A stretch of 64,000 nt of DNA from an uncultured Rhizobiaceae bacterium (GTDB taxonomy: Bacteria > Pseudomonadota > Alphaproteobacteria > UBA7879 > VGCX01). Under the pieces are notes generated by a model. The model ran no database searches, had not been told where the DNA came from, and was given only the letters and a program-made list of their open reading frames with translations. This document shows, piece by piece, positions 35,698 to 59,019 of the stretch. The DNA lies in NCBI GenBank assembly GCA_964350815.1, contig CAYGKW010000001.1, forward strand, positions 156,120 through 220,119, written 5' to 3'. Made by a program: the position numbers and the translations under genes. How positions within the stretch are numbered: position 1 is the stretch's first letter; every line of letters starts with the position of its first letter.

Positions 35698-35773
<76 letters not shown>

Positions 35774-35822
35774 CTTAAAATCAAGGACTACAGACGTTCG
35801 TACTATTCTTATAAAACTCTTC

Positions 35823-35842
35823 GGTGCTACCCTGGTGCTACT
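35823..35842 (+). repeat. Inner 20-bp direct repeat GGTGCTACCCTGGTGCTACT (copy 1)
   Basis: Identical 20-mer at 49801..49820, just upstream of the integrase start codon. Each copy sits just inside the att repeats. Possible arm-type or secondary att site. Confidence 0.5.
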
Positions 35843-35889
35843 TTTGGAATATTAAAAAGCTATGCCCAAAAATAAAAGGGATCTTAATT

Positions 35890-36426
35890 ATGAAAAAAAA
35901 CTCAAATAAAATAATCCTTGGAATTCCAGATAATCCAGAAGTTAAGCAAGCTGTAGGAGAACTGGCTATTGCGCATGGAAATATGGAAATGATTTTTATT
36001 TACTGTCTAAAAACTATAGAAGACGTAAAGCCAATACAAGCTATGAAGCAATACAGGAACTCAAGTGGCGAGAAGAAAGGTAAGAAAATTAGTACTAGAG
36101 GAAGAATCACACGTATACTGGATAACAACGTGCCTGAAACTCCTCCTTATAGTGAAGCAAAAGAAAAAATAAATGACTATATAGAAGAATCCTGGAAACT
36201 AACTCATATTAGGGATAGATATCTTCATTGTTTTTGGGGGAAAAGAAATGACTCAGGAAACTGGGAAATAAGCACTGACCACAATATTTGGAAACCATTA
36301 CCTGCTGCCGATGAAATAACAAAACATGCTAAGGAAATTAGTAAATTTTCAGAAGAATTAAACAAAGAAAGACTGAATAAGAATGGAGCGTTCGAATTTA
36401 TAAGAGCGAAATTATCAAAAGCTTGA
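35890..36426 (+). CDS. Hypothetical protein (island cargo)
   Basis: Start reassigned to the ATG at 35890 (MKKNSNKIIL...); the upstream extension runs across the 20-bp repeat. No recognisable motifs. Confidence 0.5.
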   Translation: MKKNSNKIILGIPDNPEVKQAVGELAIAHGNMEMIFIYCLKTIEDVKPIQAMKQYRNSSGEKKGKKISTRGRITRILDNNVPETPPYSEAKEKINDYIEESWKLTHIRDRYLHCFWGKRNDSGNWEISTDHNIWKPLPAADEITKHAKEISKFSEELNKERLNKNGAFEFIRAKLSKA

Positions 36427-36445
36427 TAGTTAATCTTCATTTGTT

Positions 36446-36982
36446 TCAATACAAAAGAGACAACCTTTCAATTTCTTCTTCCATGTTTGATAATATGGAA
36501 GCTCTTAGCCAATCATATTTAGTTTCCCACCACTCAAAATCTTTTATTTTATCAAGTTTTTCGTTTAAACTTTTACTAAAATATTTATTAGAAAAAACTT
36601 TAATTTCATCAAATATTTGTAAACATACCGATTCAAAATTCTTATATTCTTCCTTGTTATGCAATTCAGAAGATAACAATAAAGCATCTATGCCATTTGA
36701 AGATAATCCGCTGCAAACATTAGAAGCAAATTCATTGATTTCAGCAATTCTTTTTTTATTTAAGCGAACCATCGCATTTTTTTGAATAAACAAATCTCTA
36801 GTTTTTTGGAAAACATTTAATTTAATTCTAAACAAGTCTTTTAATCTCTCTTCCTCTCTATATTGTTCTGTTTTAGAATCTGATTTATATCCTATATACA
36901 TAGCAATAATTCCCGTTAATGCAGAAATTATAGAAACTACTAATGTTGTTATTAATATAAAGTTTTTCTGTGAATTTTTCAT
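36446..36982 (-). CDS. Hypothetical membrane-anchored coiled-coil protein (island cargo)
   Basis: 178 aa with an N-terminal TM (FILITTLVVSIISALTGIIAMYIGY) and a charged helical remainder. Convergent with the 35890 gene. Confidence 0.5.
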   Translation of the reverse strand: MKNSQKNFILITTLVVSIISALTGIIAMYIGYKSDSKTEQYREEERLKDLFRIKLNVFQKTRDLFIQKNAMVRLNKKRIAEINEFASNVCSGLSSNGIDALLLSSELHNKEEYKNFESVCLQIFDEIKVFSNKYFSKSLNEKLDKIKDFEWWETKYDWLRASILSNMEEEIERLSLLY

Positions 36983-37075
36983 AAACCTACCTTTTTACTT
37001 TTTAGATTAAATTAATCCCCATTCACATAAATTCAAGTAGGCTAAATAAATTAGCATATTATATAGAAAACTTTT

Positions 37076-37432
37076 TTACCAAAAGTCATCAACAAACTCT
37101 CTATCTTCATAATCAAAGTCGGGGTCCACTTTTGCGTCCCAGCCTCTCTTACGGCCTTTTGCCTTTAGAAAATATAAAAGACTTTTAACACAACCATTTT
37201 CTATATGTTCCCATAGTTTGTTTTCTGCATAATCGACAAGTTTATATTCAACTTCCTTACAAGCCTTCTTAAATGCAAGGTCTCGTTTTTTCCATTGATA
37301 AAAAGTTTCTGCAGAAATATTTAATTCACGGCAAGTTTCATATATCCTGCCACGATTCTTTTCTAAAACCTTTGGGAATAGTTCTTTTTCTTTTTGTTTG
37401 TATGGCAATCTTGTAATTGTATCTGAACTCAT
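37076..37432 (-). CDS. HTH protein resembling a phage terminase small subunit (TerS-like)
   Basis: Start reassigned to MSSDTITRL at 37432. HTH in ETCRELNISAETFYQWKKR, with a C-terminal ...YFLKAKGRKRGWDAK tail like HTH-type TerS proteins. The longer ORF-track extension overlaps the orphan toxin fragment. Confidence 0.4.
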   Translation of the reverse strand: MSSDTITRLPYKQKEKELFPKVLEKNRGRIYETCRELNISAETFYQWKKRDLAFKKACKEVEYKLVDYAENKLWEHIENGCVKSLLYFLKAKGRKRGWDAKVDPDFDYEDREFVDDFW

Positions 37433-37481
37433 AGTCCCTCTCCTTTCTCTCTTTTTAATATTAAACAATAAACCAAGCCAT

Positions 37482-37745
37482 CTAAAAACGAAGAAATTTA
37501 TCAGATTTATCAGATTTCGGAGAAAAAGGGGGTATAAACATGGCCGCAGCAGCACCGCAGGCAGCCCCAACCCATGGATCATCCCAAGATAAAAGCGCCC
37601 CTGTCGCTGCCCCCAATCCTGCATGCAGAATTTTATGATTCCAATAGCCTATAGCTTCATCCCCATACAATCCACCTATGTTGCTGGCCCCATAACTGCC
37701 GGCCGTCGCAGCAACCATAGATAAGATGCCCTGGGGAAGAATGTC
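37482..37745 (-). pseudogene. Orphan fragment of a polymorphic-toxin gene, homologous to an internal Gly/Ala-rich segment of the 2109-aa toxin
   Basis: Peptide ATAGSYGASNIGG..HKILHAGLGAATGALLSWDDPWVGAACGAAAAM matches toxin residues in the ...ATAGSYGASTIGDAYWHGGVGYVGHKVLHAGLGAATGALSSWDNPWVGAASGAAAAM region. Nucleotide identity holds over about 240 bp (compare 39400..39640), then the frame diverges and stops 18 codons later. Confidence 0.6.
37499..37519 (+). repeat. 21-bp direct repeat TATCAGATTTATCAGATTTCG (copy 1, at the 3' end of the orphan fragment)
   Basis: Exact 21-mer also at 44878..44898 (290 bp upstream of the toxin start). Contains an internal 9-mer tandem (ATCAGATTT x2). Confidence 0.6.
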
Positions 37746-37779
37746 TAATTATCTTTTAAAGACTAAAAATAATGGACTG

Positions 37780-38271
37780 TTATTTTTTTCTTAATTCTTC
37801 CAGTTCTTTCATTGCTTCTTCTTCTGACTTCAAGTTATTCATTAATTCATCAAAGTCATTCGCAAGCAAAGAAATTCCATCCCCCTCAACGTGCCAAAAA
37901 ACAATAGGGGGATTATCTGTGTCTGGATTTTCCCTGTAATCAAAACAAAATAAATTTCCTCCACCATCAATACCAAAAGCCACTATGCCTTTGGGAAAAA
38001 ATTCTGGGGGAGCATTTAATATTTCTATAAATTTTTCATAGGGATATGATCGTCCAAACCCCAAAAAACCATCAAAATTGTATATAGAATGGTAGTTTAA
38101 GTTTTTATCGTAATAGCAGCCATAGCTATGTATATCTTCTAAAACTCCTCCATTACAATCTATTTGAGTGTTTATATATAATTCAGGAAAGCTATAGCCG
38201 CATAGTTTTAATTCTTTATTAATTTCTTCAGGATTACCAGAAAAACATTTAGAAAACTTATTTTTCAACAT
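37780..38271 (-). CDS. Immunity protein, SMI1/KNR4 (SUKH-1) family
   Basis: 163 aa. Its start overlaps the toxin stop by 14 nt. SUKH-1 pattern: ..LP/FPELYINTQIDCNGG.. then GIVAFGIDGGGNLFCFDY and PIVFWHVEGDG...LANDFDELMNNL. Confidence 0.6.
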   Translation of the reverse strand: MLKNKFSKCFSGNPEEINKELKLCGYSFPELYINTQIDCNGGVLEDIHSYGCYYDKNLNYHSIYNFDGFLGFGRSYPYEKFIEILNAPPEFFPKGIVAFGIDGGGNLFCFDYRENPDTDNPPIVFWHVEGDGISLLANDFDELMNNLKSEEEAMKELEELRKK

Positions 38272-41200
38272 TAACTTCCCCCCATGTATTCATTCCACCT
38301 TTGTGCCCAGTTTCTCTATGGGGCACTCTTTTCATTAATTGCATTCGGCCTGCTTCTTGATGATGATGCCAAGTATAATTTGGTATTCTAGCTTTACCTT
38401 GTAAAACTGCTTCTAGCTCTGCTACAGTAAATTTTTCACTATTAAACTTACCTTGGCGAATTAGTTGTCTCAAGTGTCTTGTCCCCTCTTTCATATGTGA
38501 AACTGAAATCCCGCTTCTTAAACTCTCCGTCACACGCGTTTCAAAGACCACATGTTCATCAAAAATGGGAAATCCTCTGGCATCAAAAGGCACACCCGTT
38601 GTTGGGTGTCGGCTTCCTGCCAAGTGCGCATTTCTTTCCCCAGCACGCAATAATGTATGTGGATGCACTTCCCTATAATGGCTTTCTAACATCCTTAACA
38701 TTGTACGTGGATTATACGGCCCTCTATCCAAATGGGCAAGGTGTCTTGCCCTTGAAAGTTTCCAAGTATTCCACCCCATATGACCTAATTTTCCAATGCC
38801 ATAAGTCCCATATCCAATTCCCATATCAAAGGCTAACTCTCCAAAAGTATGGGGTAACATTACATCAAGGGTTTGTCCCAAGCTGATATCTGGTACCCTC
38901 ATGGCTGCTTGATGCATGGCTATTCTTTCACTGTATGAAAACCCTGAGTCTCCAACACCACTATAGGCCAAAGCTGCTCTTAGGTTTCGTGTAACTAATG
39001 GAACCTTCTGGGTTAATTCTATTAGAGACCCAACGCCTGGTATAGAAGTTCTGCCAAGCCTTCCTAAAGCAATTCCGCCTGCTTCATATATATCATCAGC
39101 CACATCAACTACATGCATATCCCCCGATTCATCGGTGATCACCTCTTCCATACGAGAGAGCATACTCATTGTATTATTCCGAATCGCGCGGTCGGCTGTG
39201 GCATCAGAGATATAGGGGTTACCGCCGGCATAGGCAGTGCCTAGGACAATGCCCACACGCGTTACCCCTTGGACCCATTCAGCCCGTTGTCTTAATGTGC
39301 TGGAGGGTTCCCGTGCATCCCATAGCTTGACAGGTTTATCATTTCCATAAGCTTTACGGAGTTCTGCTGGACTGCCTATGGCGGCCTCCATCACCATTTC
39401 TGCCGTCATGGCCGCAGCAGCCCCACTAGCGGCACCTACCCAGGGATTATCCCAAGATGAAAGCGCCCCTGTCGCTGCCCCCAATCCTGCATGCAATACT
39501 TTATGGCCAACATATCCAACACCCCCATGCCAATAGGCGTCTCCTATAGTAGATGCCCCATAACTGCCCGCTGTGGCAGAAGCAATGGATAAACCAGCCT
39601 GGGTTAAAATGTCAGATCCACGCCCCCCATGCACTGCCCAATTCACCCCTGTCGATACACCTGTCTGTATCGCTGCCCGCCCTAAATGACCCCCAAAGGT
39701 GGTTGCCCTTGGGATAAAACGTATACCTTCCGCATTCACACTTCCATATGCAGAATGAAGGGCCCCTTGGGTTAATCCCTGAGTTACTGCCTGCAAAGCA
39801 ATGGTTTGTATTAAGTCACGTGTAAAAGGATCTTGGCCATTAATGGCTGAAGTTGCAAGATGACTGATCGCTGCTGCACTTGCCCCTTGGGCTGCACCGG
39901 CCAAGAAGGCACTGCTCCAGGTGGATCCGATACCCCCAGTGGCCAGGCCTGCCGCAATAGCTATACCTACTTGTAATCCAGCTCCTGCTGAGTATTGTGT
40001 GTCAGAATAAGAGTGATGCCTATCAGAGACCCACCTACGCACAATATTACCTGATGCCAGGTCAATACTATTCATATTCATTGGCCGCATACGGGGGTCT
40101 TCAACCAAAATGCCATCAGCAGCAAACCTGACAAAACCATCCGTTGTTACAGCGGGACCATAGGTTGTGGAATCATCTGTTCTGATTTTTGAAGTATTAA
40201 CGGCAAATCCTCTTTCAAAGGTTTGACTCATATGATATCGGCGATCTTGGGGCGCCCTTAAAAATATCTGCGGATATCGCCATTTATGGCGGCCTTCAAA
40301 ATGAACCCCTGTCAGATCTGCATCATCGCCCTCTTCATTTAATTCTCCTTCAAATGAATCACGTACATGTTTTTGTTCTGAATCAATTTCTTCTTTTCTT
40401 TTTCCAGAAAAACCAGATTCCCTAGAGACATGTTTTCTTGTAGTGGTTTGTACTGCTCCTATAGCTCTTAATCTATCTGAATGGAAGGTACCCCTTCCTC
40501 TGGCGCGTGCACCAGCCATTAGTGTTTCGTCGACTTTTATATCAAACTCACCAAGTTTTTTACCTTCTCCCGCAATAGCTGAAGCCCGAACGGGGACATG
40601 CCCCTCTTCATGGGTATCTTCATCTATTTGATACATAGTTGTATAGTACGCAGCCTGCATTGTTAGCCTGGGGGCCCTGGCTTTTAAAGCTTCCTTTCCT
40701 TGCACAGTTCCCCCAACCAGGTGGATTTTATTTCCATAAAATAATTGCAACCTTCTAGCTGAAGTATGTCCTGTGGGGGTTGTATCGATTCTACGGATAA
40801 AGGCCGGCATCATTGTTGGATAACCATCCATCATTTGAATACCCCATAAAATCATTGGTTTATCAACGTGGGAAGGATTAATCATTGACATCGTTGTCAT
40901 AGGATTCATAGGAACCATTCGGGTTTCTTTGACCTCTGCATCCATTAATAAGGACTGAGGTCTTGACATAGGTAACGCCAAATGTCCTTTTTCCATAAAC
41001 GTTTGCGTATTGTTTTCTAAATAGGCTAATAAAGCAGGGGGAGATAATTTACTCACCTCTATATCCGTTCCCACCTGCATCGCCAAAACATGGTCTAACG
41101 CTTCAGGGCTAAGGTACTGTCTTACGGGTCTATCACGTGGAAAGTAAACCCCTGGATGAACAAAAACCATTTGAGGGTTGATGGGTAAACCATACCTTAG

Positions 41201-44200
41201 ACGAATAGGGGCCCGAGGGATCATCACTGGACCTCTTGGATCTGGATTTCTTTTATACAGGACCGAATCTAGTTCAGGCCATGATAGGCGAATACCTCCT
41301 TGCCTACCCTCAGGATCAATATTTTCAGAATAAAAATCATGAGAACCTCTAAAAGTTGCCACCCCTCCTGCCCTAAAACGTCCTGTTTGAATCACCCCAT
41401 CTGCTGAAATTGCAGCATCGCGGCCAACTATTATATCGGCAATGGTAGCGGTTCTGGTTTTTCTATAACAACCATTCTTCCACCCCCCCTTTTGGTGATG
41501 TGAATCAGACTCTATCTCCCTAGTTTCATTTCTAAAAAATCCTGAAGGAGAAACGACTGTACCTGCAACAGCTATTTTTCCAATGATATTCACAATACTA
41601 GAAACATTGCGTACATTTGGCATACGATCTGCAATTAAATCTCTAGCTATTCTTATATGTGACGGCCTAGAGGTTTCGGCATCAAAATAAGCTTTCGTGT
41701 AGGCCCCCTCAAGACCATACTCTTTTCTAAAAATATCATAAATAGTATTTTCAATCTTTCTCACATGGGGATAAGCATTACCATCAACTCTTAAATGAGC
41801 AGCTATTAACTTAAAAAGTACTGATGGAGAAGTCCTATCAAAATGACCCAGCCTCATATTCCCAATGATGTGAACGCTTGCATTGTCAATCAGCATTTGA
41901 TTTCCAAAATAAAACCCTGCTGATCCACTTGTTTGAAGATACGCCCCATTAGGTAAGTAAAACTCAACTGGTCTTTCCCCATCTCTGTGGTGGGTTTTGC
42001 TGCTTAACTTCCCCGTCCCAAGAATAATATCTGTTTTAGACGTTAGAGCCATATCTTGTTCACTGAATAATCGTGCCCATCTTAGATCAAGTAAATGAGC
42101 AGATAGTTCTAGTGGACCTCTTAAGGTATAAACTTCAACCAAATGACCCCCTCGACCAACCCGAAGGGTTTTTGGGGTTGTTAACCTTAATCCATACTCT
42201 CCTTCAACTCTTAAAGGACGTTCGATGATGATATTGCCGTGCGTATCAACATGATATCCATTGGCTTTAAACCGTTCCGGAAGTCTAAAGTCCCCCGTGT
42301 TTTTATTGGTAATCGAAATTGCCCCAGAGGATTGTAATCTGGCACTTTCTAAATCCATCGTATCTGCTTCTAGAACTAATGAAGCTTTGGCTGCCCCTAA
42401 ATCACTTGTTGCTGTTACAAAAGGCATTAAAAAGTGTCTTTCTCTTTCCCATGCTGCATCTTCTCTTGCTTCAGCAATTTCTGCGGCTCTTGCTTCTCTT
42501 ATCAATCTATTTAAGGCATTTGAAAAATCCCTACGTTTTTGCCTCATTTTTTTGCCAGGGGAAAAACATTCTTTATATATTTTCCCAAGGTCAATTCTTT
42601 TAAACATCCCAAGAGTTACCCCTTTACGAGTTAGAGCTCTTTTTACAACCTCCCTCTCTGGGAAAGATAAGTTTGTTAATGGATCAGGGAAAAACACTCT
42701 TTTTAAGGGACGAAGGTCTTTCGTTAAACCAAACCTAAGGCTTGCTGAATTAAGCACTATTCTTGTCGCCTCTATATCACTCCTAATCTTTAAGGCCTCT
42801 TCAATCTCTGCTGTAAACCCTCCCTCTTTTGATAATACCCGACCTTTTAAATCTAATGATTTTGATTCAACCGAGATATCTTTTTCACTTTCAAAACTTG
42901 CGGCCTCACCAGCAAAAACAACACCAACACCAGGGGCCTTTAAATCCACCCCACCCTTGGCAAAAATTGGTTTTTCAAGCCCTAAAGTCCCTAATCCAGA
43001 ATTAACCCTAAGCTGTAAGGCTGAGCTTGTTCTTATCCCTTCTCTTAAATCTGGAAGGGCGTCAAACGTCATATCTAATAATCTTGCCGCACGCAAACGT
43101 TCTGGGTCATAGGCAAAGGCGCCACGGGATCTTATGATAAGGTCTGCCAACTGTAGAGCGGTTCCTTCTGAATCTTTTGAAAGACTAGAGTATTTCCCTT
43201 CCAAATTTCCCTCAGAAAAATCCAATTCGACTTTGCCATCAGAGGCCATAATACCTGTTTTGGCATGGTACAAGCGCCCTTGGGATTTCAATTGAACACC
43301 TAAACGGGCACTTACCAAACCTGCAACAGTTAGGCCTTCTGCCATAGTTGAAAATAATTGATCGCTACGACTAAAGAGTTTGGCTGATTCAGCAACAAGC
43401 AATGATCTCCCTGTTAAATCTAATCTATTTTCTGCCCTTAAATCACCTTCTATACTGAGTACATCGAAATCCATAGAACCGGTATCCGTATCAAGGACAC
43501 CCCCCTTATCGAGGGTTAAAGCTCCTCTCTCTAAAACAAAATGTTTTGCTTTAACAGAACCTGCTATATGTCCTTCACCTGATAATCCAAGCGTGTGATC
43601 AACAGAAGTCTCGACCTCTCCTCGTTGGGCATAAGCGCTTTCCACGGTTTCCGTTAATCTTTCTGCTGTGATTTTTCCATCATTCACATAATGGGCGGAT
43701 AAAATACTTAACCAATTATCAGCATCCATGGTGGATCGGGCATCAATAATACCTGTCTCTCTATTGATAAAATAATCGGTAGCGATTAAAGATTGATGGG
43801 CTTCACCCCCTCCATACACACTCAATTCGCCGGCACTATCAAACCGGCTGCCGTAGGCCATAAATCTTGAAAGGCCATGGACTTCATTTCCCTTGGCCAG
43901 TTTAAATCCAGTAGAAGTCGGCCCGCCTGTCATCACAGCTTCCAAAGCAACAGTCATAAAATCTTGTTCAACACTTAATCCTGGGGCCATAACTTTTAAA
44001 CCAGCTGCAACATAAGCATCTTTATAGCCGGAAAAGGTAACATCTTGGGATAACCTTATGGTAAACCGGGTTTGGCTTTCGTTCAGATTAATAACTTCAA
44101 CCTTACCATCTGGCATTAAAACAAAACTTAATGGAAATTCCGGAATTTTTTCGGTTGAAAGGCTGCATTCCATACCCCCTTTTTTAGGAACAGCCGCAAT

Positions 44201-44587
44201 CCGTGAAGCCCCCCTTTTTGATGCAGAGGCAACTGATGCTAAATCTCCAGAATCTGTTTTCCTAAATTGTTCTGAGGTTTCCCATTGGGGGGTTCCCGCC
44301 TTATCCAGCTGACGTATACGAACCTCAAACCCAGGCAAAGTTTTTGCAAACCCATCTGCGCCATCAGCATCAACAAGTTTTCCCTCCACACTTTTAAGTT
44401 TTTTTAAATTTGAAAATCTTCCTGGCAGATGTCGGACTTCAACTTCGATATCTTGCATCGCACAGGCACAAACGGCCAGCATGTTTTGAAAGATAAATGT
44501 AAACAGAACTGTATAAACCACAATCCTTTTGCTTGGTCTTAGCGCCTTAACCGCCCTGTTAAAGATGTTCTTTGTTCTATTGTTCAT
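38258..44587 (-). CDS. Giant polymorphic toxin (2109 aa): signal sequence, a long beta-helical or filamentous repeat region, a Gly/Ala-rich pre-toxin segment and a C-terminal WHH-family HNH-superfamily nuclease domain
   Basis: N-terminal hydrophobic signal or anchor (VVYTVLFTFIFQNMLAVCACA). More than 1000 aa of degenerate G/S/T-rich repeats. The C-terminus ...NYTWHHHQEAGRMQLMKRVPHRETGHKGGMNTWGE fits the WHH nuclease signature. An immunity gene follows immediately. Confidence 0.7.
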   Translation of the reverse strand: MNNRTKNIFNRAVKALRPSKRIVVYTVLFTFIFQNMLAVCACAMQDIEVEVRHLPGRFSNLKKLKSVEGKLVDADGADGFAKTLPGFEVRIRQLDKAGTPQWETSEQFRKTDSGDLASVASASKRGASRIAAVPKKGGMECSLSTEKIPEFPLSFVLMPDGKVEVINLNESQTRFTIRLSQDVTFSGYKDAYVAAGLKVMAPGLSVEQDFMTVALEAVMTGGPTSTGFKLAKGNEVHGLSRFMAYGSRFDSAGELSVYGGGEAHQSLIATDYFINRETGIIDARSTMDADNWLSILSAHYVNDGKITAERLTETVESAYAQRGEVETSVDHTLGLSGEGHIAGSVKAKHFVLERGALTLDKGGVLDTDTGSMDFDVLSIEGDLRAENRLDLTGRSLLVAESAKLFSRSDQLFSTMAEGLTVAGLVSARLGVQLKSQGRLYHAKTGIMASDGKVELDFSEGNLEGKYSSLSKDSEGTALQLADLIIRSRGAFAYDPERLRAARLLDMTFDALPDLREGIRTSSALQLRVNSGLGTLGLEKPIFAKGGVDLKAPGVGVVFAGEAASFESEKDISVESKSLDLKGRVLSKEGGFTAEIEEALKIRSDIEATRIVLNSASLRFGLTKDLRPLKRVFFPDPLTNLSFPEREVVKRALTRKGVTLGMFKRIDLGKIYKECFSPGKKMRQKRRDFSNALNRLIREARAAEIAEAREDAAWERERHFLMPFVTATSDLGAAKASLVLEADTMDLESARLQSSGAISITNKNTGDFRLPERFKANGYHVDTHGNIIIERPLRVEGEYGLRLTTPKTLRVGRGGHLVEVYTLRGPLELSAHLLDLRWARLFSEQDMALTSKTDIILGTGKLSSKTHHRDGERPVEFYLPNGAYLQTSGSAGFYFGNQMLIDNASVHIIGNMRLGHFDRTSPSVLFKLIAAHLRVDGNAYPHVRKIENTIYDIFRKEYGLEGAYTKAYFDAETSRPSHIRIARDLIADRMPNVRNVSSIVNIIGKIAVAGTVVSPSGFFRNETREIESDSHHQKGGWKNGCYRKTRTATIADIIVGRDAAISADGVIQTGRFRAGGVATFRGSHDFYSENIDPEGRQGGIRLSWPELDSVLYKRNPDPRGPVMIPRAPIRLRYGLPINPQMVFVHPGVYFPRDRPVRQYLSPEALDHVLAMQVGTDIEVSKLSPPALLAYLENNTQTFMEKGHLALPMSRPQSLLMDAEVKETRMVPMNPMTTMSMINPSHVDKPMILWGIQMMDGYPTMMPAFIRRIDTTPTGHTSARRLQLFYGNKIHLVGGTVQGKEALKARAPRLTMQAAYYTTMYQIDEDTHEEGHVPVRASAIAGEGKKLGEFDIKVDETLMAGARARGRGTFHSDRLRAIGAVQTTTRKHVSRESGFSGKRKEEIDSEQKHVRDSFEGELNEEGDDADLTGVHFEGRHKWRYPQIFLRAPQDRRYHMSQTFERGFAVNTSKIRTDDSTTYGPAVTTDGFVRFAADGILVEDPRMRPMNMNSIDLASGNIVRRWVSDRHHSYSDTQYSAGAGLQVGIAIAAGLATGGIGSTWSSAFLAGAAQGASAAAISHLATSAINGQDPFTRDLIQTIALQAVTQGLTQGALHSAYGSVNAEGIRFIPRATTFGGHLGRAAIQTGVSTGVNWAVHGGRGSDILTQAGLSIASATAGSYGASTIGDAYWHGGVGYVGHKVLHAGLGAATGALSSWDNPWVGAASGAAAAMTAEMVMEAAIGSPAELRKAYGNDKPVKLWDAREPSSTLRQRAEWVQGVTRVGIVLGTAYAGGNPYISDATADRAIRNNTMSMLSRMEEVITDESGDMHVVDVADDIYEAGGIALGRLGRTSIPGVGSLIELTQKVPLVTRNLRAALAYSGVGDSGFSYSERIAMHQAAMRVPDISLGQTLDVMLPHTFGELAFDMGIGYGTYGIGKLGHMGWNTWKLSRARHLAHLDRGPYNPRTMLRMLESHYREVHPHTLLRAGERNAHLAGSRHPTTGVPFDARGFPIFDEHVVFETRVTESLRSGISVSHMKEGTRHLRQLIRQGKFNSEKFTVAELEAVLQGKARIPNYTWHHHQEAGRMQLMKRVPHRETGHKGGMNTWGEVNVEK

Positions 44588-44877
44588 AATCCACCTGTAC
44601 TTGTCTTATTGTTTATAGAAATGTTCTTGTATGAAGTAGGATATTTATACGGACACCAGATCTGTGAGTAAAGACCAAAACAAAAACATTTCCCGTTATT
44701 TTTTTATTTGTTTTTTATTGAGAAGGATAAGGTCGTTTGAAAAACTGCCTCCTGTTATTTTTTACTTAGATTGGAATCTGTAACCTATTTTTCAAGTTTA
44801 AATATGAAATATAATAAAAGTTATGGTTATAAACCTTGATTGAATTTTAAAAAGACACTTAAAAAAAACCATAAAAA

Positions 44878-44898
44878 TATCAGATTTATCAGATTTCG
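44878..44898 (+). repeat. 21-bp direct repeat TATCAGATTTATCAGATTTCG (copy 2, upstream of the toxin gene)
   Basis: Exact match to 37499..37519. Together the two copies bracket the toxin, the immunity gene and the orphan fragment (about 7.4 kb). Confidence 0.6.
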
Positions 44899-44919
44899 TT
44901 AACCTATCTTAGCCTTTGT

Positions 44920-45090
44920 GAAACATCTCTGTTTCAGCATTTGTTTCCATGGTGTTTCAGATGAATCGCTGTACACAGGTCTTTTTCTATAGACGTTTCA
45001 TCTTTTGTTTCATAGGCGTCTCAATTTAATAACAAGTGTTTCACTGTTCCATTCCTATAGAGTGAAACAATGAAACAAACTTCATGTAAC
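44920..45090. repeat. Iteron-like array of GTTTCA/TGAAAC motifs; putative replication origin of the island
   Basis: At least nine copies of (T)GTTTCA(C/T) or its complement lie within 170 bp, immediately 3' of the primase-helicase gene. P4-type origins sit in the same position. Confidence 0.3.
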
Positions 45091-47037
45091 TTATTTGGCA
45101 ACCAATACTTCTGCCTCCATCTTCTTTATCACCCTATGCGCCTTGCTAGAACTAATATCAAGTTCCTTAGCAATTTCACGTCGGGACATTCCTTCTTGCT
45201 GAAGCTCCCATACTTTTTTCTCTAAAATATTTTCTATATCATTAACTTGCCATGCTAAAGCCTCATCTTCTTCTGTTATCAAAGTTAACTCAAAAGGTTT
45301 AGATGACTCTCCATAAAAACCCCTTGCCTTTTGGTAGTGAAGTTCAAAAGTTGCCCCATTATGCTCTTCTTTGTCATTGCTTTCTTTTAATTCAATAACA
45401 GTATCTAATGAATCTTCTTTTCTTGAAGTTCCCCTTTGCTTTCCATTTTTATTTGCATGATGGATAATAAGAACAGATATTCCACGACACCTTAACGATA
45501 AAAGCCATTCAAGAATCAATACCCAACTATCACTGTCATTTTCTTTATAAGAGCGGCACAAAGAAGAAAGATTATCGAGGATTAATAACTCTACACCTTC
45601 CAAATGCTCTTCAATATATGATTGCCCTTCTTGGGTTGATAAATCTGGCATCGAATGCTCTTGTTGATCGGGGGTAATAATATGAAGTTTTTTTAAATCC
45701 CTTTCCTTGCACCCATACCCTCTACTAATAGACCTTATTCTTTCTTGTAATGAAACCTGGGACATTTCTCCATCCAAAAACAAGACTTTCCTTGGAGATG
45801 GCGCTTTCCATCGACCATCAAACATTTCTTTTCCAGAAACAACAGCACATGCGATAGACAAACTTAAGAATGTTTTTCCAATACCAGGTTTTGCAAATAT
45901 CATCGCTAAACCCTGTTCTGGGATAATAGGGCCTAAAATCATTTCTCTTGGACGAAGGGGAATTGTTAAAAAATCCAAGGCATTATTACATCTTAATCTT
46001 CTTCTGTTTAAAGCATCCTCAATTTGCTTTTTAACTTCCTCTAACCCTTCTAAAACATGTAGATCATTAAAGTCTTTTGGATGCGTCTTTGTTTCCTTAA
46101 ACTGAGGCAATACCATTTTACACCCATATCGACTAGCAACTGATTGAGCAGCTTCTTTCCCTGTATTCTTTCCTTTCCACTGATCATTATCACCAGCTAT
46201 TAGAAAAGAATGGTATAGATACTGATCACGGAAAACCTTAACTACAGGATCAATATTCCCGGCATCAAAACAGATAATAACTGGATAGCCAGTTGCTTCA
46301 TGAATAGAGGCTGCTGTGGCATATCCCTCTGAAAAAATAATTGGCTTAGTTTTGTTAGCTTCAATCGTTCCTATTATATGAAAGCATCCTTGCTTACGCC
46401 CGCCAGTTTTAAACCATTTATCCCTGCCATTTTTATCTCTCTTCTCTGCTATTCTCTGATAACTCCATATCTTTCCATAAATATCCTGCAACGGTATAAC
46501 CAGATAGCTTTGATTGATACGAACGCCATAGGGATTAACATGCTTTATCTGTAAATAGGTGTGACAGTCTTTTGACTGAACTTCTCTAAAACTTTCCAAG
46601 TCTTTTACTGCTTGTTCAGCAATTTCTTTTTGGGATTTAAGGCGCCTTTCTTCTCTTTCTTTTTTTGCTGCAACAATTTTGGATTGAATTTCCTTCCACT
46701 GTTCTGGATTTAGGAGTTGTCTATCTTTTTTGAACCAGAGAACTTTAGGTAAATTACCACTCCAATCCCCAATTACTCCCCAAGTTAGGCCTGCAATATA
46801 CCAACACCTTTTTTTCTTGCCAAAGCGATGAACATTCTCATCATGCTGTATAGAAAGGGGAATGTCATATCCTGACAACCTAAAACAATCTTCAAATATT
46901 TCCGCTTCACATCTAAACTCATTTCCAAAATCAAAAGTCTTTGTTTGATGTTTAGAACCAAAATTGGTATTGTTACTATTGAAACTACTATCACGTCCGC
47001 CTCGACCAAAGGCGGGCTTTTTTATGCCATTACTCAT
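45091..47037 (-). CDS. Replication protein: TOPRIM primase domain fused to a P-loop (RepA/D5-like) helicase, with a C-terminal HTH
   Basis: TOPRIM-like segment VIICFDAGN...LIAGDNDQWKG. Walker A FAKPGIGKTFLSL and Walker B LLILDNLSS. C-terminal HTH MSRREIAKELDISSSKAHR. Likely start at M13 (47037), 2 nt after the alpA stop. Confidence 0.7.
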   Translation of the reverse strand: MSNGIKKPAFGRGGRDSSFNSNNTNFGSKHQTKTFDFGNEFRCEAEIFEDCFRLSGYDIPLSIQHDENVHRFGKKKRCWYIAGLTWGVIGDWSGNLPKVLWFKKDRQLLNPEQWKEIQSKIVAAKKEREERRLKSQKEIAEQAVKDLESFREVQSKDCHTYLQIKHVNPYGVRINQSYLVIPLQDIYGKIWSYQRIAEKRDKNGRDKWFKTGGRKQGCFHIIGTIEANKTKPIIFSEGYATAASIHEATGYPVIICFDAGNIDPVVKVFRDQYLYHSFLIAGDNDQWKGKNTGKEAAQSVASRYGCKMVLPQFKETKTHPKDFNDLHVLEGLEEVKKQIEDALNRRRLRCNNALDFLTIPLRPREMILGPIIPEQGLAMIFAKPGIGKTFLSLSIACAVVSGKEMFDGRWKAPSPRKVLFLDGEMSQVSLQERIRSISRGYGCKERDLKKLHIITPDQQEHSMPDLSTQEGQSYIEEHLEGVELLILDNLSSLCRSYKENDSDSWVLILEWLLSLRCRGISVLIIHHANKNGKQRGTSRKEDSLDTVIELKESNDKEEHNGATFELHYQKARGFYGESSKPFELTLITEEDEALAWQVNDIENILEKKVWELQQEGMSRREIAKELDISSSKAHRVIKKMEAEVLVAK

Positions 47038-47242
47038 GATCACCCCCCTCTTTAACAGTCGTATTATTTTCAATAAAATTCATTAAGTCCGACAATCGAT
47101 ACTTTGCTAATCGCCCCACCTTGACCATCGGCAACCCATAACGTTTGTTACAAGCCCATACGGCCAAAGTACCTTCTGTTGTTCCTAAAAGTTCAGCTGC
47201 TTCTTTCCGATTGAGAAGCTTATTAGTTTGTTCTATTTTCAT
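47030..47242 (-). CDS. alpA: AlpA-family transcriptional regulator / excisionase (Phage_AlpA HTH)
   Basis: 70 aa, LLNRKEAAELLGTTEGTLAVWACNKRYGLPMVKVGRLAKYRLSDL, the classic prophage CP4-57 AlpA fold. Confidence 0.75.
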   Translation of the reverse strand: MKIEQTNKLLNRKEAAELLGTTEGTLAVWACNKRYGLPMVKVGRLAKYRLSDLMNFIENNTTVKEGGDHE

Positions 47243-47310
47243 AGGCTTTATTCCTCTTAAAGTTAAAACTACCTATGTTAATAATCATTCTGAATTGTTG
47301 AAAAAAGACC

Positions 47311-47324
47311 GTTCGCTAGCGAAC
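47311..47324. promoter_or_regulatory. 14-bp perfect palindrome GTTCGCTAGCGAAC upstream of alpA (candidate operator)
   Basis: Perfect dyad about 70 bp upstream of the alpA start codon, in an AT-rich intergenic region. Confidence 0.25.
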
Positions 47325-47630
47325 CTACCTAAAAATTTTAGAGGTTGGACTAGATAAGTTACCTGGAGGTTGTTTGTATTGGCGAAATAAGCAGCAGAGG
47401 TAGCAAATATAAATAAGAAAAGTTATGGATTTTTGTGCTAAAGTAACAGGATGAGTAGTAGTAGAAGTTAGCATTAGCCATCTTCAGTGATTCTTAATTA
47501 TTAAAAAGTTCACAGACAGCAATTTTACCACTTCTTGAAAGAAGTGAATTCAGATTCACTTTTTGTTTTTCTAGTGACAATTGAAGCTTTTGAGGGAACT
47601 GTGTATTTTTGTTAACTCTTAGTTCCTTTA

Positions 47631-48626
47631 TCAAGGCCAACCAAAAAAATAACCTCTATTTTTGGTTAGCCAATTTTCAATTTCAATAAGCTTCTCAATA
47701 ATTTTTTTGGAGGGAATACCTATATGAATTTCTTTATCTTTCCCTTTCTCGTGTTCATTAATCCATTTTATAATGGTCTTGATGCCCTGCTCTTCTGAAA
47801 TTAAATGTTTATCCCCACTATCTTTCAATTTTTCATAAATTGCAGTTGCTGCTTCGGTTTTATTCTTATAGTTATTTTTATTTTCATCCCAATGCTTAAT
47901 TGCAAATTCATTTGATTTTTGAAATTTGTTATTCCATCGTTTTTGGAACCCTTTCTTTCTTGATTTTAGCTCCTTCCAAATCAGAGCAATTCTTTGATTA
48001 GACATAGTATTATAATCTTCAAAAAAAGTTTTAGGTTCAGAAAATTTTCCATGGCGCGTCCAGGAATTATATGAATTACAATGTTCTATCGGTGACCATG
48101 AAGTTTGATTATTAAACTCTTGATAGGCTTTTGAAGCAACTTTTATCCAACTCACTTGATGCATATTAATTTTTAACGAATATTCAGAATTATGCACGGT
48201 GTTTTTTTGGATAGATATATACTCCCCTAGGGATATAAGAAAGATGACAGGAAAGATATCCTTTAACATTAAATCAGTCCAACCTTCATCTTTTAGGTTT
48301 AAAAAAAATTCCTCTTTATTCCATTTATAATATAAATTAAATACATCGAAAAAATCAGGATTCTTAGTTTCTGTACATCTTTGAAAGTGAACTTCATTTC
48401 TAATATTTCTCAATTTAGAAAGTATTCCCTCTTGATTTGTATCAATTAGATTTTCCAAAAAATAAGCTAAGTTTAATATTTCTTCTGTAGAAAATCTTCT
48501 TTGCTTAAAATACTCATTAACATGCCAGAGTTCATGTTGAAAAGGTAGATTATAATCTTCTAATAATGATTTATAATTCTCACCTAGGAGTTCTGAAATA
48601 ACCTCTTGGTATGATTTAGTTTTCAT
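47631..48626 (-). CDS. Hypothetical protein (island cargo, unknown function)
   Basis: 331 aa, W/Y/K-rich, no recognisable motif. Its start overlaps the integrase stop (ATGA). Confidence 0.5.
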   Translation of the reverse strand: MKTKSYQEVISELLGENYKSLLEDYNLPFQHELWHVNEYFKQRRFSTEEILNLAYFLENLIDTNQEGILSKLRNIRNEVHFQRCTETKNPDFFDVFNLYYKWNKEEFFLNLKDEGWTDLMLKDIFPVIFLISLGEYISIQKNTVHNSEYSLKINMHQVSWIKVASKAYQEFNNQTSWSPIEHCNSYNSWTRHGKFSEPKTFFEDYNTMSNQRIALIWKELKSRKKGFQKRWNNKFQKSNEFAIKHWDENKNNYKNKTEAATAIYEKLKDSGDKHLISEEQGIKTIIKWINEHEKGKDKEIHIGIPSKKIIEKLIEIENWLTKNRGYFFGWP

Positions 48627-49798
48627 TTTGACCTACCTTCCTCAGTCACATTCATAAGCATTGCGCTGGTGGCACGGTTAACTGATTCCCTTACTGGATC
48701 AATATTTAATCGAGCATAAATGGCTGTTGCTTGTTGTGTTTTGTGTCCTAAAGATTTCCCAATGACATAGCTGTTGGCTCCAGTGGCCGCTTGCCAGCTC
48801 CCTAATGTTCTTCGTAAATCATGCAATCTTAAGTCTGTCAGATTTGCTTCTTCTAATATTCTTTTCCAGACACGCTTTGGTTCTTCTAAGTGTCCTGACT
48901 GGCTAGTTTTACTGGGAAATACCCAATCATTTTCTTTATAGATATGGCGTTGACGAAGAATTTTGATAATGTCAGACGATAATGGAATAAGATGCGATTC
49001 CCCATTCTTTGTTTCTGGTATGTTCCAAGTCTCCTTATTAAGGTCCACATCTTGCCAACGCATACTTAAGACATTTCCCTTGCGAGCCCCTGTTAAAAGA
49101 CACACCATAAAAAAGTCTGTAAATAATTTATTGGGTTCTTTTGCCAGAGCTTGAAAGAAACGTGATAGTTCTTCTCCTTGTAAAAATCTTTCGCGACTTT
49201 TTTCTTTAAACTTCTTAATACCTTCGACAGGTGATTTTCCATCCCATCCCCAATCCATGGCTTTATTAAACATAACCCCTAAAAGAGCCAACATACGATT
49301 TGCAGCATAAACTCCATTTACCTTTCCTACATTTGAATGGAGTGCTTCAAAGTCAGCTTTATGAAAACTAGAAATCTTTCTTTTCTTTAAATGAGATAAA
49401 TAAAGGCGATAAATATTTTCATCATTCTTCCAAGACTTTTTATGAAGCTTTGCATGTCCCTCTAGGTATCTTTCAAAAAGCTCCCCAAAAGTTAACTCTG
49501 CTTTTAATTTTGATTTCTCACGATTAGGATTTTTGCCTAGAGAAATTTGTGAATTTATACTTGAAGCTTGTCCACGTGCATTTTCAACAGACAGATCAGG
49601 ATAATACCCCAACATAATACGTTCAGGCCGACCTTTAACCTTTCGGTAGACATAAAAAGTTTTTGTTCCTTTGCTTGTAACGGAAATAATAAGAGCACGT
49701 ACTTTTGTATCATAATAATAAAATCTCTTCCCTTGTGGTGGTAAAGGAAGAACCTCCAAAGCTTTCTTAGTAAAGTTAATTTTGTTATCAGTCTTCAT
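48623..49798 (-). CDS. int: Tyrosine site-specific integrase (phage/P4-type)
   Basis: 391 aa. C-terminal catalytic box ...HDLRRTLGSWQAATGANSYVIGKSLGHKTQQATAIYARL (R..HxxR..Y). N-terminal arm-binding-like domain. Adjacent to attR. Confidence 0.9.
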   Translation of the reverse strand: MKTDNKINFTKKALEVLPLPPQGKRFYYYDTKVRALIISVTSKGTKTFYVYRKVKGRPERIMLGYYPDLSVENARGQASSINSQISLGKNPNREKSKLKAELTFGELFERYLEGHAKLHKKSWKNDENIYRLYLSHLKKRKISSFHKADFEALHSNVGKVNGVYAANRMLALLGVMFNKAMDWGWDGKSPVEGIKKFKEKSRERFLQGEELSRFFQALAKEPNKLFTDFFMVCLLTGARKGNVLSMRWQDVDLNKETWNIPETKNGESHLIPLSSDIIKILRQRHIYKENDWVFPSKTSQSGHLEEPKRVWKRILEEANLTDLRLHDLRRTLGSWQAATGANSYVIGKSLGHKTQQATAIYARLNIDPVRESVNRATSAMLMNVTEEGRSK

Positions 49799-49800
49799 TT

Positions 49801-49820
49801 GGTGCTACCCTGGTGCTACT
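49801..49820 (+). repeat. Inner 20-bp direct repeat GGTGCTACCCTGGTGCTACT (copy 2)
   Basis: Identical to 35823..35842. Begins 3 nt upstream of the integrase ATG (minus strand). Confidence 0.5.
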
Positions 49821-49938
49821 CTCTAGGTTAAATTTAGTTAATTTCAGTTGACTTTAGTAAAGAGTGGAATACCATAAAATATAAGGCTGGTAAAGAGAAA
49901 TTAAACTTTGTTAAATTTGAGAAAATGTATGACTTTAA

Positions 49939-49985
49939 GACTCTTAATCAGCGGGTCACAGGTTCGAATCCTGTAGTGCCCACCA
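49939..49985 (+). repeat. attR: 47-bp duplicate of the tRNA-Lys 3' half
   Basis: Exact copy of 35727..35773. Similarity to the tRNA stops abruptly 5' of the anticodon loop. Confidence 0.8.
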
Positions 49986-50168
49986 TTCAAATTAAAATTT
50001 GTCAGTCTATTCTAGAACTATTGGTAAAAGAGAGAGACATCAATGAAAAACCAATTTCTAAAATTTATATTTTTGATATTTTTCACCACTGGATTTTTCC
50101 ATAGCACAGATGCCAAAAACAACTGCAACAATAGCCTTCCAATAAACTTAGATAAAATAAGAGTATAA

Positions 50169-51203
50169 TATAATCTACAAGCCTTTGCCGTTGGTTTTGT
50201 TGACATTAAAAATATTAACACTTGGGTTATTAGTAATGATACTCCAAGGAGTAAACCCAGACTTAAAAGCAAATGGCTTTTTGCCTCTAACACAAAACCG
50301 ATGACAGCCCTACTTATTGCAAAATTGGTGGAACAAGGTAAACTTACTTGGTCATCAAAAATCAAAGATATCTTTCCTGAGCTTTCAAATCAATCTCTTG
50401 CAGAGTTCAATGAAATCACAGTTGAACAGCTTCTGTCACATTCAGCAGGGCTGGCTAAAGATAGCCCTGGTATATTTGAATCTCTCGAAAACTGGCCAGG
50501 ATATATTAAACATATTGATACAATGAACGCGCACATTTTAGAAAATAAAAACCGACCCCTTACAGATCAACGATTAGATGTTCTGGCAGATTTTGGAAAG
50601 AAAAAACTTAAACACCCCAAAAATGAATTTCATTATTCAAATGTTGGATATGTTATTTTGGGGGCAATTATAGAAAAGGTGACCGGCCTTAGTTATGAAA
50701 CAGCGATGACCAAGCTTTTATTTAAACCTTTAGGAATAGACTCAGCTGAATTCAAACTTTCTGATGACTCTGTCCCTCCTACTAAACTTAATGGGCATTA
50801 CTTTACAAATCAACCTAGGCAAAAAGTTATGCTACTTGCTTTATGAATCCAGCGGGTGGGGTTTATATTGCAATAAATGATTGGGCTTTTTTCATCCAAG
50901 AACTTATTAATGGGCTTGCAGGTAAAAGTACTTACTTGAAAAAAGAAACTTATAAAAAAGTTATTTACACCGGTTATTAATGACAGGACACTAACACACA
51001 AAATTATTGATGGAGAATTATCCCATCTTGGAACAGATCTTTTATCAACTTCTATTTCAAAAATAGACATCAAAAAGAAAACTGGGGTCTTGTTTGTCAT
51101 AAACAGAGGGTTTAATTATTCTCTTCCCCCCAGTCAGTATAAACAGACCCCAGTGTTTAAAGCTTTTAATGAGACAAAGTTACTGCCATTTCATGAATTA
51201 TAA
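50169..51203 (+). pseudogene. Beta-lactamase / PBP4*-family serine hydrolase pseudogene (frameshifted, no start codon)
   Basis: SxxK motif in FASNTKPMTA (about 50275..50300). Reading continues through frameshifts near 50846 and 50980 (NPAGGVYIAINDW..., then ...KKTGVLFVINRGFNYSL). No ATG upstream in frame after the stop at 50166. Confidence 0.5.
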
Positions 51204-51334
51204 AACATTATGCTTCTTAACTATCAATATCTGAGTCCATTTGTTGAAAATCCACCACCTTCGTTTACTAGAAAAAAACCGGGGCCACCGGCTTTTTATC
51301 TACATTGAACTTTAATGGAATCTCATGACAGTGT

Positions 51335-51703
51335 TTAAGGCACTTTCTTAAAGAACCACTTAGCTGACTTAACGTCTCTTTTGTGAGAAAGCATAAAGTC
51401 AATGGTATCCCCTTTTTTATCAATGGCCCTATAGAGATATTTCCACTGACCTTTAACTTTGATATACGTTTCATCGATTCTCCAGGAAAATCCTATAGGC
51501 TGACTATACCAACGAAGTTTTTTTCAAACTCAGGCGCATATCTCTGAATCCAACGGTAGATAGTTGTATGATCAACTTTAACACCCCATTCTGACATCAT
51601 TTCAGATAATTGACTAACTCAAAGGATATCTCAAATACCATCTCATACACTGCAAGATAACTTCTGGAACAAAATGTCGCCACTTAAAGGCCATTGGCTT
51701 CAT
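51335..51703 (-). pseudogene. IS6-family (IS26-like) transposase remnant: N-terminal half only, with an internal stop and a frameshift
   Basis: Minus-strand translation gives MKPMAFKWRHFVPEVILQCMRWYLRYPLS*, then ..MMSEWGVKVDHTTIYRWIQRYAPEFEK and IDETYIKVKGQWKYLYRAIDKKGDTIDFMLSHKRDVKSAK. These are collinear with the IS26 Tnp N-terminal half. No intact IRs were found. Confidence 0.6.
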
Positions 51704-52068
51704 AAACAAATCCCCTATTTATGATTAGATCCTTAGATCTTACCTCATTAATCTTTTTTTGCAACAGACCCATGAAACGGATAGATAGATAGATACATAA
51801 AAAAAGGATGCCATGCATAAGCAAACAAAAATAACTTTGGAAGACGCAATCGCGGAGAAGATATCTTTTACAGAATCAAGACTATTTTTGATAGAACCTT
51901 CATTTCTAGGATTTGGAAAAATCAAAAAATTGAAGCGAAGCTGATTGCTAATATACTGAATAAAATGACAAGCCTTAGTATATCAATAACGCAATAATAT
52001 CCCAAACCTTTGGAAATATTGTCCTTCAACCGTTTTTTGATTTACAACACAAAGCAAAGCCAAAAAAG

Positions 52069-53825: not shown

Positions 53826-53828
53826 AGT

Positions 53829-54827: not shown

Positions 54828-54982
54828 ATTTTAAGTACCTTAAATATAAAAATTCTAAAAAATTTGTAACATAAAAAGTATAAAAAATAAAGACTTGCTC
54901 TTCTAAAAAATTATTTGTCATTTTCCTTAGTTTTATGCTAGTAGATATGGTTATAGTTAAAATTTTACATACATAATATATT

Positions 54983-55378: not shown

Positions 55379-55381
55379 GGT

Positions 55382-57207: not shown

Positions 57208-57237
57208 TAAAATTGGTTTTTTATAAAGGATTAAATT

Positions 57238-59017: not shown

Positions 59018-59019
59018 TA

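Follow-up and report, generated by a model that had tools for sequence, protein, structure and literature searches.

In a stretch of 64,000 nucleotides from an uncultured Rhizobiaceae bacterium (contig CAYGKW010000001.1; the whole stretch is hereafter called the window), we found a 14.2-kb integrative island (35774-49985, 14,212 bp) inserted in a tRNA-Lys(CTT) gene. At 37482-44898 the island carries the gene of a very large predicted nuclease toxin, an overlapping immunity gene and a short toxin-like fragment (the stub), and the same 21-nt sequence (TATCAGATTTATCAGATTTCG) flanks this segment on both sides. Nearly all of the island genes lie on the minus strand. Read in that direction, the order is integrase, a hypothetical gene, an AlpA-like gene, a primase-helicase gene, a probable iteron origin, 21-mer copy A, toxin, immunity gene, stub, 21-mer copy B, a terS-like gene and two hypothetical genes (Table 1). 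A first-pass annotation of this DNA, made by a model from the letters alone, had read the stub and the 21-mers as traces of a toxin tip exchange; it missed the enclosing mobile island, with its tRNA-Lys gene, 47-bp att repeats, integrase and primase. We lean towards a different history, in which the toxin segment is island cargo that was inserted at or next to a pre-existing 21-nt element of the island backbone.

Table 1. Features of the tRNA-Lys island and its borders, in window coordinates (HTH, helix-turn-helix; ORF, open reading frame).
Feature	Position	Strand	Evidence or remark
tRNA-Lys(CTT) gene	35698..35773	+	ARAGORN; Rfam tRNA 76.9 bits
Left att core	35727-35773	+	Last 47 nt of the tRNA-Lys gene; exact repeat of 49939-49985
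20-mer GGTGCTACCCTGGTGCTACT	35823-35842, again 49801-49820	+	Exact 20-nt direct repeat near each island end
Hypothetical 178-aa gene, tRNA-proximal island end	35890..36426	+	Gene call in Logan contig L002
Hypothetical 178-aa gene	36446..36982	-	ORF list, gene call; no significant family match
TerS-like HTH protein, 118 aa	37076..37432	-	phrog_4044 terminase small subunit, E = 2.6e-6
21-mer copy B (CGAAATCTGATAAATCTGATA on the minus strand)	37499..37519	-	67-87 nt upstream of the terS-like ATG
Orphan stub, 69 codons, 208 bp	37540..37747	-	Homologous to toxin aa 1659-1727
SUKH-1 (SMI1/KNR4) immunity gene (predicted)	37780..38271	-	PF09346, E = 3.7e-17, 63.5 bits
Polymorphic toxin (predicted), 2109 aa	38258..44587	-	ATG at 44587; signal-like N-terminal segment, nuclease tip
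Toxin-gene segment paralogous to the stub	39407..39616	-	
21-mer copy A	44878..44898	-	290 nt upstream of the toxin ATG
Iteron cluster	44919..45077	both	TGAAACA/TGTTTCA heptamers, 7/27 of the window's total in 159 bp
Primase-helicase (Toprim_3 + AAA_25), C-terminal HTH	45091..47037	-	Pfam, PHROG
AlpA/excisionase-type HTH_17 protein, 70 aa	47030..47242	-	HTH_17; excisionase-regulator PHROGs
Hypothetical 331-aa gene, between integrase and AlpA-like gene	47631..48626	-	Position kept in related islands
Tyrosine integrase (Arm-DNA-bind_3 + Phage_integrase)	48623..49798	-	Pfam
Right att core	49939..49985	+	47-nt copy of the tRNA-Lys 3' part

The two copies of the 21-mer are the only ones in the window. 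They stand in direct orientation, 7379 bp apart, at the positions and at the distance from the toxin start that had first been reported. Allowing up to three mismatches yielded no further match in the window, and none of 100 dinucleotide-preserving shuffles contained any match (0/100), which bears out the earlier remark that a chance repeat of this length is improbable. On the minus strand the sequence reads CGA + AATCTGATA + AATCTGATA, a tandem 9-mer, and the exact 9-mer has no other occurrence in the 64 kb. The two copies agree at all 21 positions, and their identity falls off abruptly beyond either end. Both copies lie exactly at the borders between cargo and backbone: copy A is 20 nt beyond the last iteron, and copy B is 20 nt past the end of the toxin homology in the stub. 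The suggestion that the 21-mers mark the cassette boundaries therefore holds as far as their position goes, although they appear to belong to the backbone and not to the orphan fragment, as set out below.

A similar motif is found in another island. L017 is a different integrase/PrimPol island without the toxin cassette, and it carries AAACCTGAAAAATCTGAATAATTTAGTTTGTTTTT ~85-105 nt upstream of its own terS-like gene. This sequence aligns to copy B together with its T-rich flank; a T-run follows both copies of the 21-mer, as it does in L017. The match has the top score for the copy-B region in 2.66 Mb of unrelated loci (33, followed by 29 and 28), a score reached by 0/500 shuffles, and a relaxed tandem pattern matched in L017 alone within 1.24 Mb. 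The motif stands at one site only in L017. Toxin homology stops 20 nt short of the 21-mer, which argues that the 21-mer is not toxin-derived. For this reason, and because a similar motif precedes the L017 terS-like gene, we assign the 21-mer with moderate confidence to the island backbone, as a putative cis-element that goes with the terS-like module, and not to the toxin or the stub. Among 5.8 billion proteins, just two relatives of the TerS-like protein were found, encoded in L017 and in L016 (80%; ENA contig k119_28859). Positions 1-19 of L016 are the Nextera mosaic-end adapter AGATGTGTATAAGAGACAG, an adapter contamination in the deposited assembly. As the adapter ends L016 29 nt upstream of its terS-like gene, this relative is uninformative on the motif. 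Neither the cassette nor the motif was found in 80 viral loci with distant primases.

We also searched genome, metagenome and viral collections, among which the source genome is not included, for the 21-mer and obtained five single-copy matches in unrelated contexts. The sequence is intergenic in Variovorax, codes for KSDKSDK in an Algibacter metagenome-assembled genome, and is otherwise found on a 3.8-kb metagenome contig and on a 326-kb contig present in two collections. In the Variovorax sequence (L009 141-167, upstream of a response-regulator gene) 27 nt are shared with copy B, and in the 3.8-kb contig (L011 2358-2386) 29 nt.

Turning to the stub, its homology to an internal pre-toxin segment of the large gene is real (73% at the nucleotide and 68% at the amino acid level), as the first-pass annotation had claimed, but it extends over 208 bp (37540-37747) and not over the 240 bp first given. 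Positions 37539-37745 align without gaps to 39407-39613 (74% over 207 nt), and a direct count gives 154/210 identical nucleotides. The longest exact run, first put at 35 nt, is 36 nt long (37592-37627 = 39460-39495). The stub peptide (DILPQGILSMVAATAGSYGAS...LHAGLGAATGALLSWDDPWVGAACGAAAAM) is 68% identical over 60 aa to toxin aa 1659-1718, with E = 3e-25 after composition correction, and this rules out a low-complexity artefact, in agreement with the original assessment. Homology covers the stretch from 33 nt past the immunity stop codon down to 37540. The 21-mer is hence not at the very end of the orphan fragment, as had been thought; the 20 nt in between match nothing. After the residues AAAAM, 18 codons of backbone DNA run to the stop codon. 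Since the homology ends before the 21-mer, the tail FIPPFSPKSDKSDKFLRF (KSDKSDKFLRF), which had been taken for a diverged toxin tail, is non-toxin DNA read in frame, including the 21-mer and its flank.

Several features suggest that the stub is no longer functional. A stop codon lies just upstream of its start, where no Shine-Dalgarno sequence is found; it contains no toxin domain, its sole Pfam match being a weak Gly-zipper; and the next gene after it is the terS-like gene, not an immunity gene. Its break point, moreover, is arbitrary, as its homologues continue with ...AEMVMEA after AAAAM. Given the lack of a distinct tip and of an immunity gene, and the arbitrary break, we regard the stub as a truncated relic and not as a working orphan module. 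With 73% nucleotide identity it stems from another allele and is no recent copy of the resident toxin gene. To judge from its sequence, then, the stub no longer functions and is what remains of a second, diverged allele in this toxin family, cut inside the pre-toxin segment. Recombination between the stub and the main gene would delete the tip and the immunity gene, yielding nothing useful; through the 36-nt repeat, the deletion would amount to 1868 bp.

It seems highly improbable to us that these observations reflect chance or artefact, with the 21-mer a fortuitous match of AT-rich, low-complexity sequence, the stub an assembly error at a repeat, or both. The 21-mer is internally repetitive and has the five outside matches in unrelated contexts. 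In addition, the Logan contigs of run ERR3534985, which reproduce the sequence, break exactly at the 36-nt toxin/stub repeat as well as at the 47-nt repeats. Contig breaks at such repeats are expected for a k = 31 assembly. Against an artefact stand the shuffles described above and a census of exact repeats of at least 16 nt, in which just four of at least 18 nt occur in the 64-kb window (the 47-mer, 36-mer, 21-mer and 20-mer), all of them belonging to the island. Moreover, the flanks of the stub are continuous with unique sequence in the independent contigs L001 and L002, and 26% of its positions differ from the main gene, so the reads hold two distinct toxin-like copies.

The large gene itself shows the hallmarks of a polymorphic toxin. 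Its tip (aa 2001-2103) is a Colicin-DNase/WHH HNH-nuclease domain, matching both PF12639 Colicin-DNase (E = 2.9e-13, 50.9 bits, cut-off 25) and PF14414 WHH (E = 2.3e-10, 40.5 bits, cut-off 25.1). Residues 1565-1713 resemble a DUF637-like pre-toxin region, at 20.2 bits and thus below the cut-off of 26.6. The SUKH-1 gene lies directly downstream, with a 14-nt overlap at the toxin stop, and the combination of Tox-WHH and Imm-SUKH has been documented before (Zhang et al. 2012, PMC3482391). An exhaustive HMMER search with toxin aa 1450-2109 gave 1544 matches, of which we inspected the best 150. Almost all of these best 150 match the last ~150 residues only, in proteins of 140-2950 aa, and among them the nuclease tip (aa ~1950-2105) recurs in >100 proteins with other N-termini. 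Conversely, one homologue (P0130) shares toxin aa 1760-1941 at 50% identity and then continues into a different 186-aa tip, placing the tip junction of the family near aa 1945; a 2682-aa relative (P0129) covers the pre-tip part of the toxin. The recurrence of the tip on many N-termini and the alternative tip of P0130 lead us to consider the 2109-aa protein a polymorphic toxin. With a recognised toxin tip, a paired downstream immunity family and a tip that varies among homologues, the cargo is a polymorphic toxin-immunity system, its toxin activity being predicted from these features. No relatives of the toxin were found in viral contigs.

A further relative, P0149 (L018 17-388), represents the last part of a larger ORF and stops ~25 residues after the conserved segment that is duplicated in the stub (HAxLGAATGA...PWVGAASGA). 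It is a second, independent case of an ORF of the toxin family truncated there, on a contig with ParA/ParB, Fic and leucine-rich repeat (LRR) genes. This suggests that genes of the toxin family repeatedly break or recombine at this segment.

How the toxin might be delivered is less apparent from its sequence. Its N-terminal part of ~1500 aa has no match in Pfam, NCBIfam or the PDB, and aa 1-1600 have no Pfam match even at E <= 5; searches of PADLOC, NCBIfam and the PDB with the toxin and the hypothetical proteins came back empty. We found no PT-VENN match, the only similar motif being AIRNN at aa 1802-1806. An identity as CdiA or Rhs was rejected. On the CdiA side, the toxin has no TPS (Haemagg_act) domain, no FHA repeats, no NPNL or NPNG motif and no VENN, and the island ORFs scanned contain no Omp85/ShlB-type domain that could represent a CdiB/TpsB neighbour. 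On the Rhs side, it has no Pfam RHS match and no DPxGL or YDxxG motif. A type VI secretion cluster lies elsewhere in the window (5567-20485), where the product of 6178-7659 falls in a protein cluster named ImpC/TssC; the toxin itself contains none of the PAAR, VgrG and Rhs domains.

The first-pass annotation had explained the stub by displacement in place, in which an incoming tip and immunity gene recombined into the conserved region of an older toxin, with the 21-mers as the boundaries of the exchange. Part of this is sound. Orphans have been described as displaced fragments without start signals, in which some of the conserved region is preserved (Koskiniemi et al. 2014, PMC3967940), and the stub, a diverged allele and not a recent self-duplication, has this form and lies in the canonical orphan position, next to a toxin whose family does replace its tips. 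The remainder fares less well. No old tip and no old immunity gene follow the stub, its end is at a non-modular point, and the family's tip junction is near aa 1945, not at aa 1659-1727. The 21-mer has no toxin homology and brackets the whole gene together with its 290-nt upstream region, which tip displacement would not create. Nor did the search for alternative tips at the same locus in related strains, proposed as a check, recover any: no homologous locus with alternative tips was found, and the relatives with 91-99% identical RodA have an empty site. We therefore consider displacement at this locus unlikely, and nothing shows that such an event took place in situ and not before the cargo arrived. 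The displacement that produced the stub may have happened in the island, or in a donor locus before the cargo was captured; no homologous locus that would decide between these is present in the searchable data.

On balance, we think it somewhat probable that 37482-44898 is a cargo module of the island, whose toxin-immunity-stub segment was inserted at or next to the 21-mer element, copies of which now stand at either side. With its tandem 9-mer, this element would act in cis in the backbone, putatively as a protein-binding site of the terS-like module. Campbell-type recombination over a short stretch of shared sequence could have brought the cargo in, or else an insertion in which the element was duplicated; the outcome would be one 21-mer at the origin side and one before the terS-like gene, with a truncated stub at the right-hand junction. 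The cargo would encode a large exported protein ending in a predicted WHH/colicin-type HNH DNase, along with a SUKH-1 protein predicted to neutralise it in the producer. We favour this history because of the sharp 21-nt identity, the single site in the cassette-free L017, the truncation of the stub at the junction and the higher GC content of the cargo (0.44, with 0.54 in the stub, vs 0.30-0.37 in the backbone).

A number of points speak against this history. We found no relative of the island, whether carrying the cassette or free of it (the closest primase homologue is 49% identical), and we infer both the insertion or duplication and the protein binding to the motif. The cargo is without a recombinase or terminal inverted repeats, and to our knowledge none of the standard transposition mechanisms would leave a 21-bp duplication at the flanks; 21 bp is above the usual target-site duplications and below typical att cores. 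The support from L017 is one sequence, which was already known when the relaxed pattern was drawn up. The outside matches share up to 27-29 nt with copy B, of which continuation of the repeat unit explains only part. The satellite status of the island, discussed below, derives from gene content alone, and the fold model of the TerS-like protein is poor (pLDDT, the predicted local distance difference test, of 60). Lastly, the copies might just as well be two functional sites whose identity is maintained by selection or gene conversion. Insertion of a transposon or integron-like element was considered separately and rejected; the cargo has no transposase or recombinase, and no inverted repeat pairs its inner ends.

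The possibility of two functional sites can be spelled out further. Here the 21-mers would be operator, activator or pac-type sites before the toxin operon and the terS-like gene, sharing a signal such as satellite induction; they would putatively be bound by the TerS-like protein, the AlpA-like protein or the C-terminal HTH of the primase, and their position at the borders would be a consequence of operon structure. Each copy does precede a gene, by 290 nt in the case of the toxin and by 67 nt in that of the terS-like gene, with the same orientation in both cases; the motif and its trailing T-run are conserved before the L017 terS-like gene, and the island encodes three HTH proteins. There is also a third, single motif unit (AAACTTGAAAAAT, 44787-44799), ~200 nt upstream of the toxin start and in the same orientation as the 21-mers. 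The degenerate unit has 4 matches in the window vs 0.45 expected, all in these two regions, although this pattern was defined after the fact. The perfect 21-nt identity with its abrupt edges, however, looks more like a copying event than selection, and L017 has one site only. Promoter and terminator scans around both copies gave nothing useful, and no sigma-70-like promoter was detected near either. An apparent homology of 44787-44821 to the region upstream of the L017 terS-like gene (score 36, 0/500 shuffles) was discarded: an unrelated coding region in L024 scores 40, so this similarity is no better than chance matches in other loci. Compared by eye with the respective consensus sequences, the 21-mer fits none of IHF, DnaA, CtrA, Fur box, Pho box or GANTC sites. 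We find two selected sites possible but doubtful, and moderately prefer the insertion of cargo at a functional element, noting that these readings are not exclusive.

A bolder proposal is that the tandem 9-mer is a working site of the TerS-like or AlpA-like protein, of the pac or activator type, and at the same time a junction for cargo swapping by short homology in this satellite family, the toxin being released at helper-phage lysis, like colicins. We regard this as quite unlikely; if true, the giant DNase toxin would be a removable module, with its expression tied to satellite induction.

That the island as a whole is an insertion follows from relatives in which the tRNA-Lys site is empty. 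In these island-free metagenomic relatives (RodA 99%, 95% and 91% identical, rodA being the gene just before the tRNA), rodA and tRNA-Lys are followed within 0.3-2 kb by SIS/ABC genes, and the same genes are found at 62.3 kb in the window. Related islands, with primases 47-49% identical, have the order integrase - hypothetical - AlpA - primase in common, while their downstream cargo differs. The 20-mer near each island end consists of GGTGCTAC twice, 11 nt apart; one copy lies ~50 nt inside the tRNA-side att, and the other abuts the start codon of the integrase. Island L017 has TGTGCCACCAGTGTGCCAT at the equivalent place, and the GGTGCTACCCTGGTGCTACT copies probably serve as arm-type sites of the integrase.

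The tRNA-Lys site may also have been occupied before. A homologue of the 35890-36426 gene (43% at the amino acid, 78% at the nucleotide level) lies directly after tRNA-Lys in island-free relatives (L024 11297-11725; L026 1940-2368), which lack a second att copy, and it may be the remnant of an older element at this hotspot. On the other side of the island, a second strain-specific block (49986-62268) is likewise absent from the relatives with 91-99% identical RodA. It contains a truncated ORF of the beta-lactamase family (50301-50846), a glycosyltransferase, a nucleotidyl transferase, a dehydratase, two DegT-type aminotransferases, a GNAT protein and a transketolase, and looks like a surface-polysaccharide or sugar-modification cluster.

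In its gene content, the island resembles phage satellites of the P4 type or the phage-inducible chromosomal island (PICI) type. It combines an integrase and att repeats with an AlpA-type regulator and a primase next to a probable origin, and its size falls within ~7-20 kb. The AlpA-like protein, for which the Pfam call was taken from precomputed annotation, is 68% identical to the protein at the AlpA position of island L004. The iteron cluster lies directly after the primase-helicase stop codon and includes two near-variant heptamers besides those in Table 1. Satellite and plasmid origins usually have this location, and its place directly 3' of the primase-helicase gene makes the cluster (44919-45077) the probable replication origin of the island. 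Both detectable phage homologues of the TerS-like protein sit directly upstream of terL; its AlphaFold2 model was of low confidence, and the top folds (2ao9 and Sf6 TerS) were without significance in a fold search. No phage structural genes were found in the island, its packaging-type candidates being limited to the TerS-like protein, and the product of 35890..36426 had no match in Pfam, PHROG or PADLOC. The combination of integrase, AlpA and primase corresponds to the 'Type C PICI' of SatelliteFinder (de Sousa et al. 2023, PMC10085698).

What the locus offers, then, is a predicted interbacterial nuclease toxin, of the contact or release type, with its immunity gene on a small phage-satellite-like island, and with cargo borders known to the base pair. 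The cassette is in itself an ordinary polymorphic toxin-immunity pair with a dead stub, and neither it nor the island overturns current understanding; its interest lies in its carriage by a satellite-like tRNA island and in borders that coincide with a duplicated backbone motif. The exact 21-bp repeats predict a precise product of cassette loss, with the junction ...AGATAGGTTAA-CGAAATCTGATAAATCTGATA-AATTTCTTCGTTTTTAG..., and the 1500-aa N-terminal part of the toxin, in which no delivery domain can be recognised, may represent a trafficking module not yet described.

Compared with known systems, the cargo shares several features with Campbell-type or moron acquisitions: a discrete foreign segment with its own upstream region sits between backbone modules, it is flanked by exact short direct repeats, and its precise loss is possible. 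Unlike in such acquisitions, there is no recombinase, transposase or terminal inverted repeat in the cargo.

Orphan cdiA-CT/cdiI and rhs-CT/rhsI modules, reportedly treated by Poole et al. 2011, offer the closest parallel to the stub. Like these modules (PMC3967940), the stub is placed directly downstream of a toxin-immunity pair, lacks start signals and matches the conserved region that immediately precedes the variable part. It differs in having neither a toxin-coding tip nor an immunity gene, and in the extent of its homology, with 69 codons at 73% nucleotide identity vs 95% over 522 bp in a working Salmonella orphan. Recombination with the main gene would accordingly produce a truncation without toxin or immunity instead of a new toxin.

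As for the toxin, it shares with the described Tox-WHH/Imm-SUKH systems (Zhang, Iyer and Aravind 2011, PMC3113570; PMC3482391) a C-terminal nuclease on a very large, presumably exported protein, an overlapping downstream SUKH-1 gene, a tip found on many unrelated architectures, a pre-tip region that also occurs with another tip, and a DUF637-like pre-toxin region. In contrast to those systems, its N-terminal ~1500 aa match no trafficking domain (TPS, PAAR, VgrG, RHS, LXG and others), and it is carried on a satellite-like island, not in a chromosomal toxin locus.

Finally, the island has much in common with P4 and PICI satellites (PMC10085698; Fillol-Salom et al. 2018, PMC6092414), including its size of ~14 kb, integration in a tRNA gene with att repeats, the order integrase - AlpA-like - primase/helicase, an iteron cluster after the replication gene, accessory cargo, and a small-terminase-like gene in the absence of a large terminase or structural genes. 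In contrast to P4, no Psu, Delta or Sid was recognised in the island, and in contrast to PICIs, no capsid-morphogenesis or Ppi-type genes. It further departs from the known members of both groups in that its nearest primase homologues are <50% identical and that it has no known helper phage. The cargo named for satellites comprises defence systems, virulence factors and resistance genes, polymorphic toxins not being among them (PMC10085698; PMC6092414). A polymorphic toxin as satellite cargo would extend that list.

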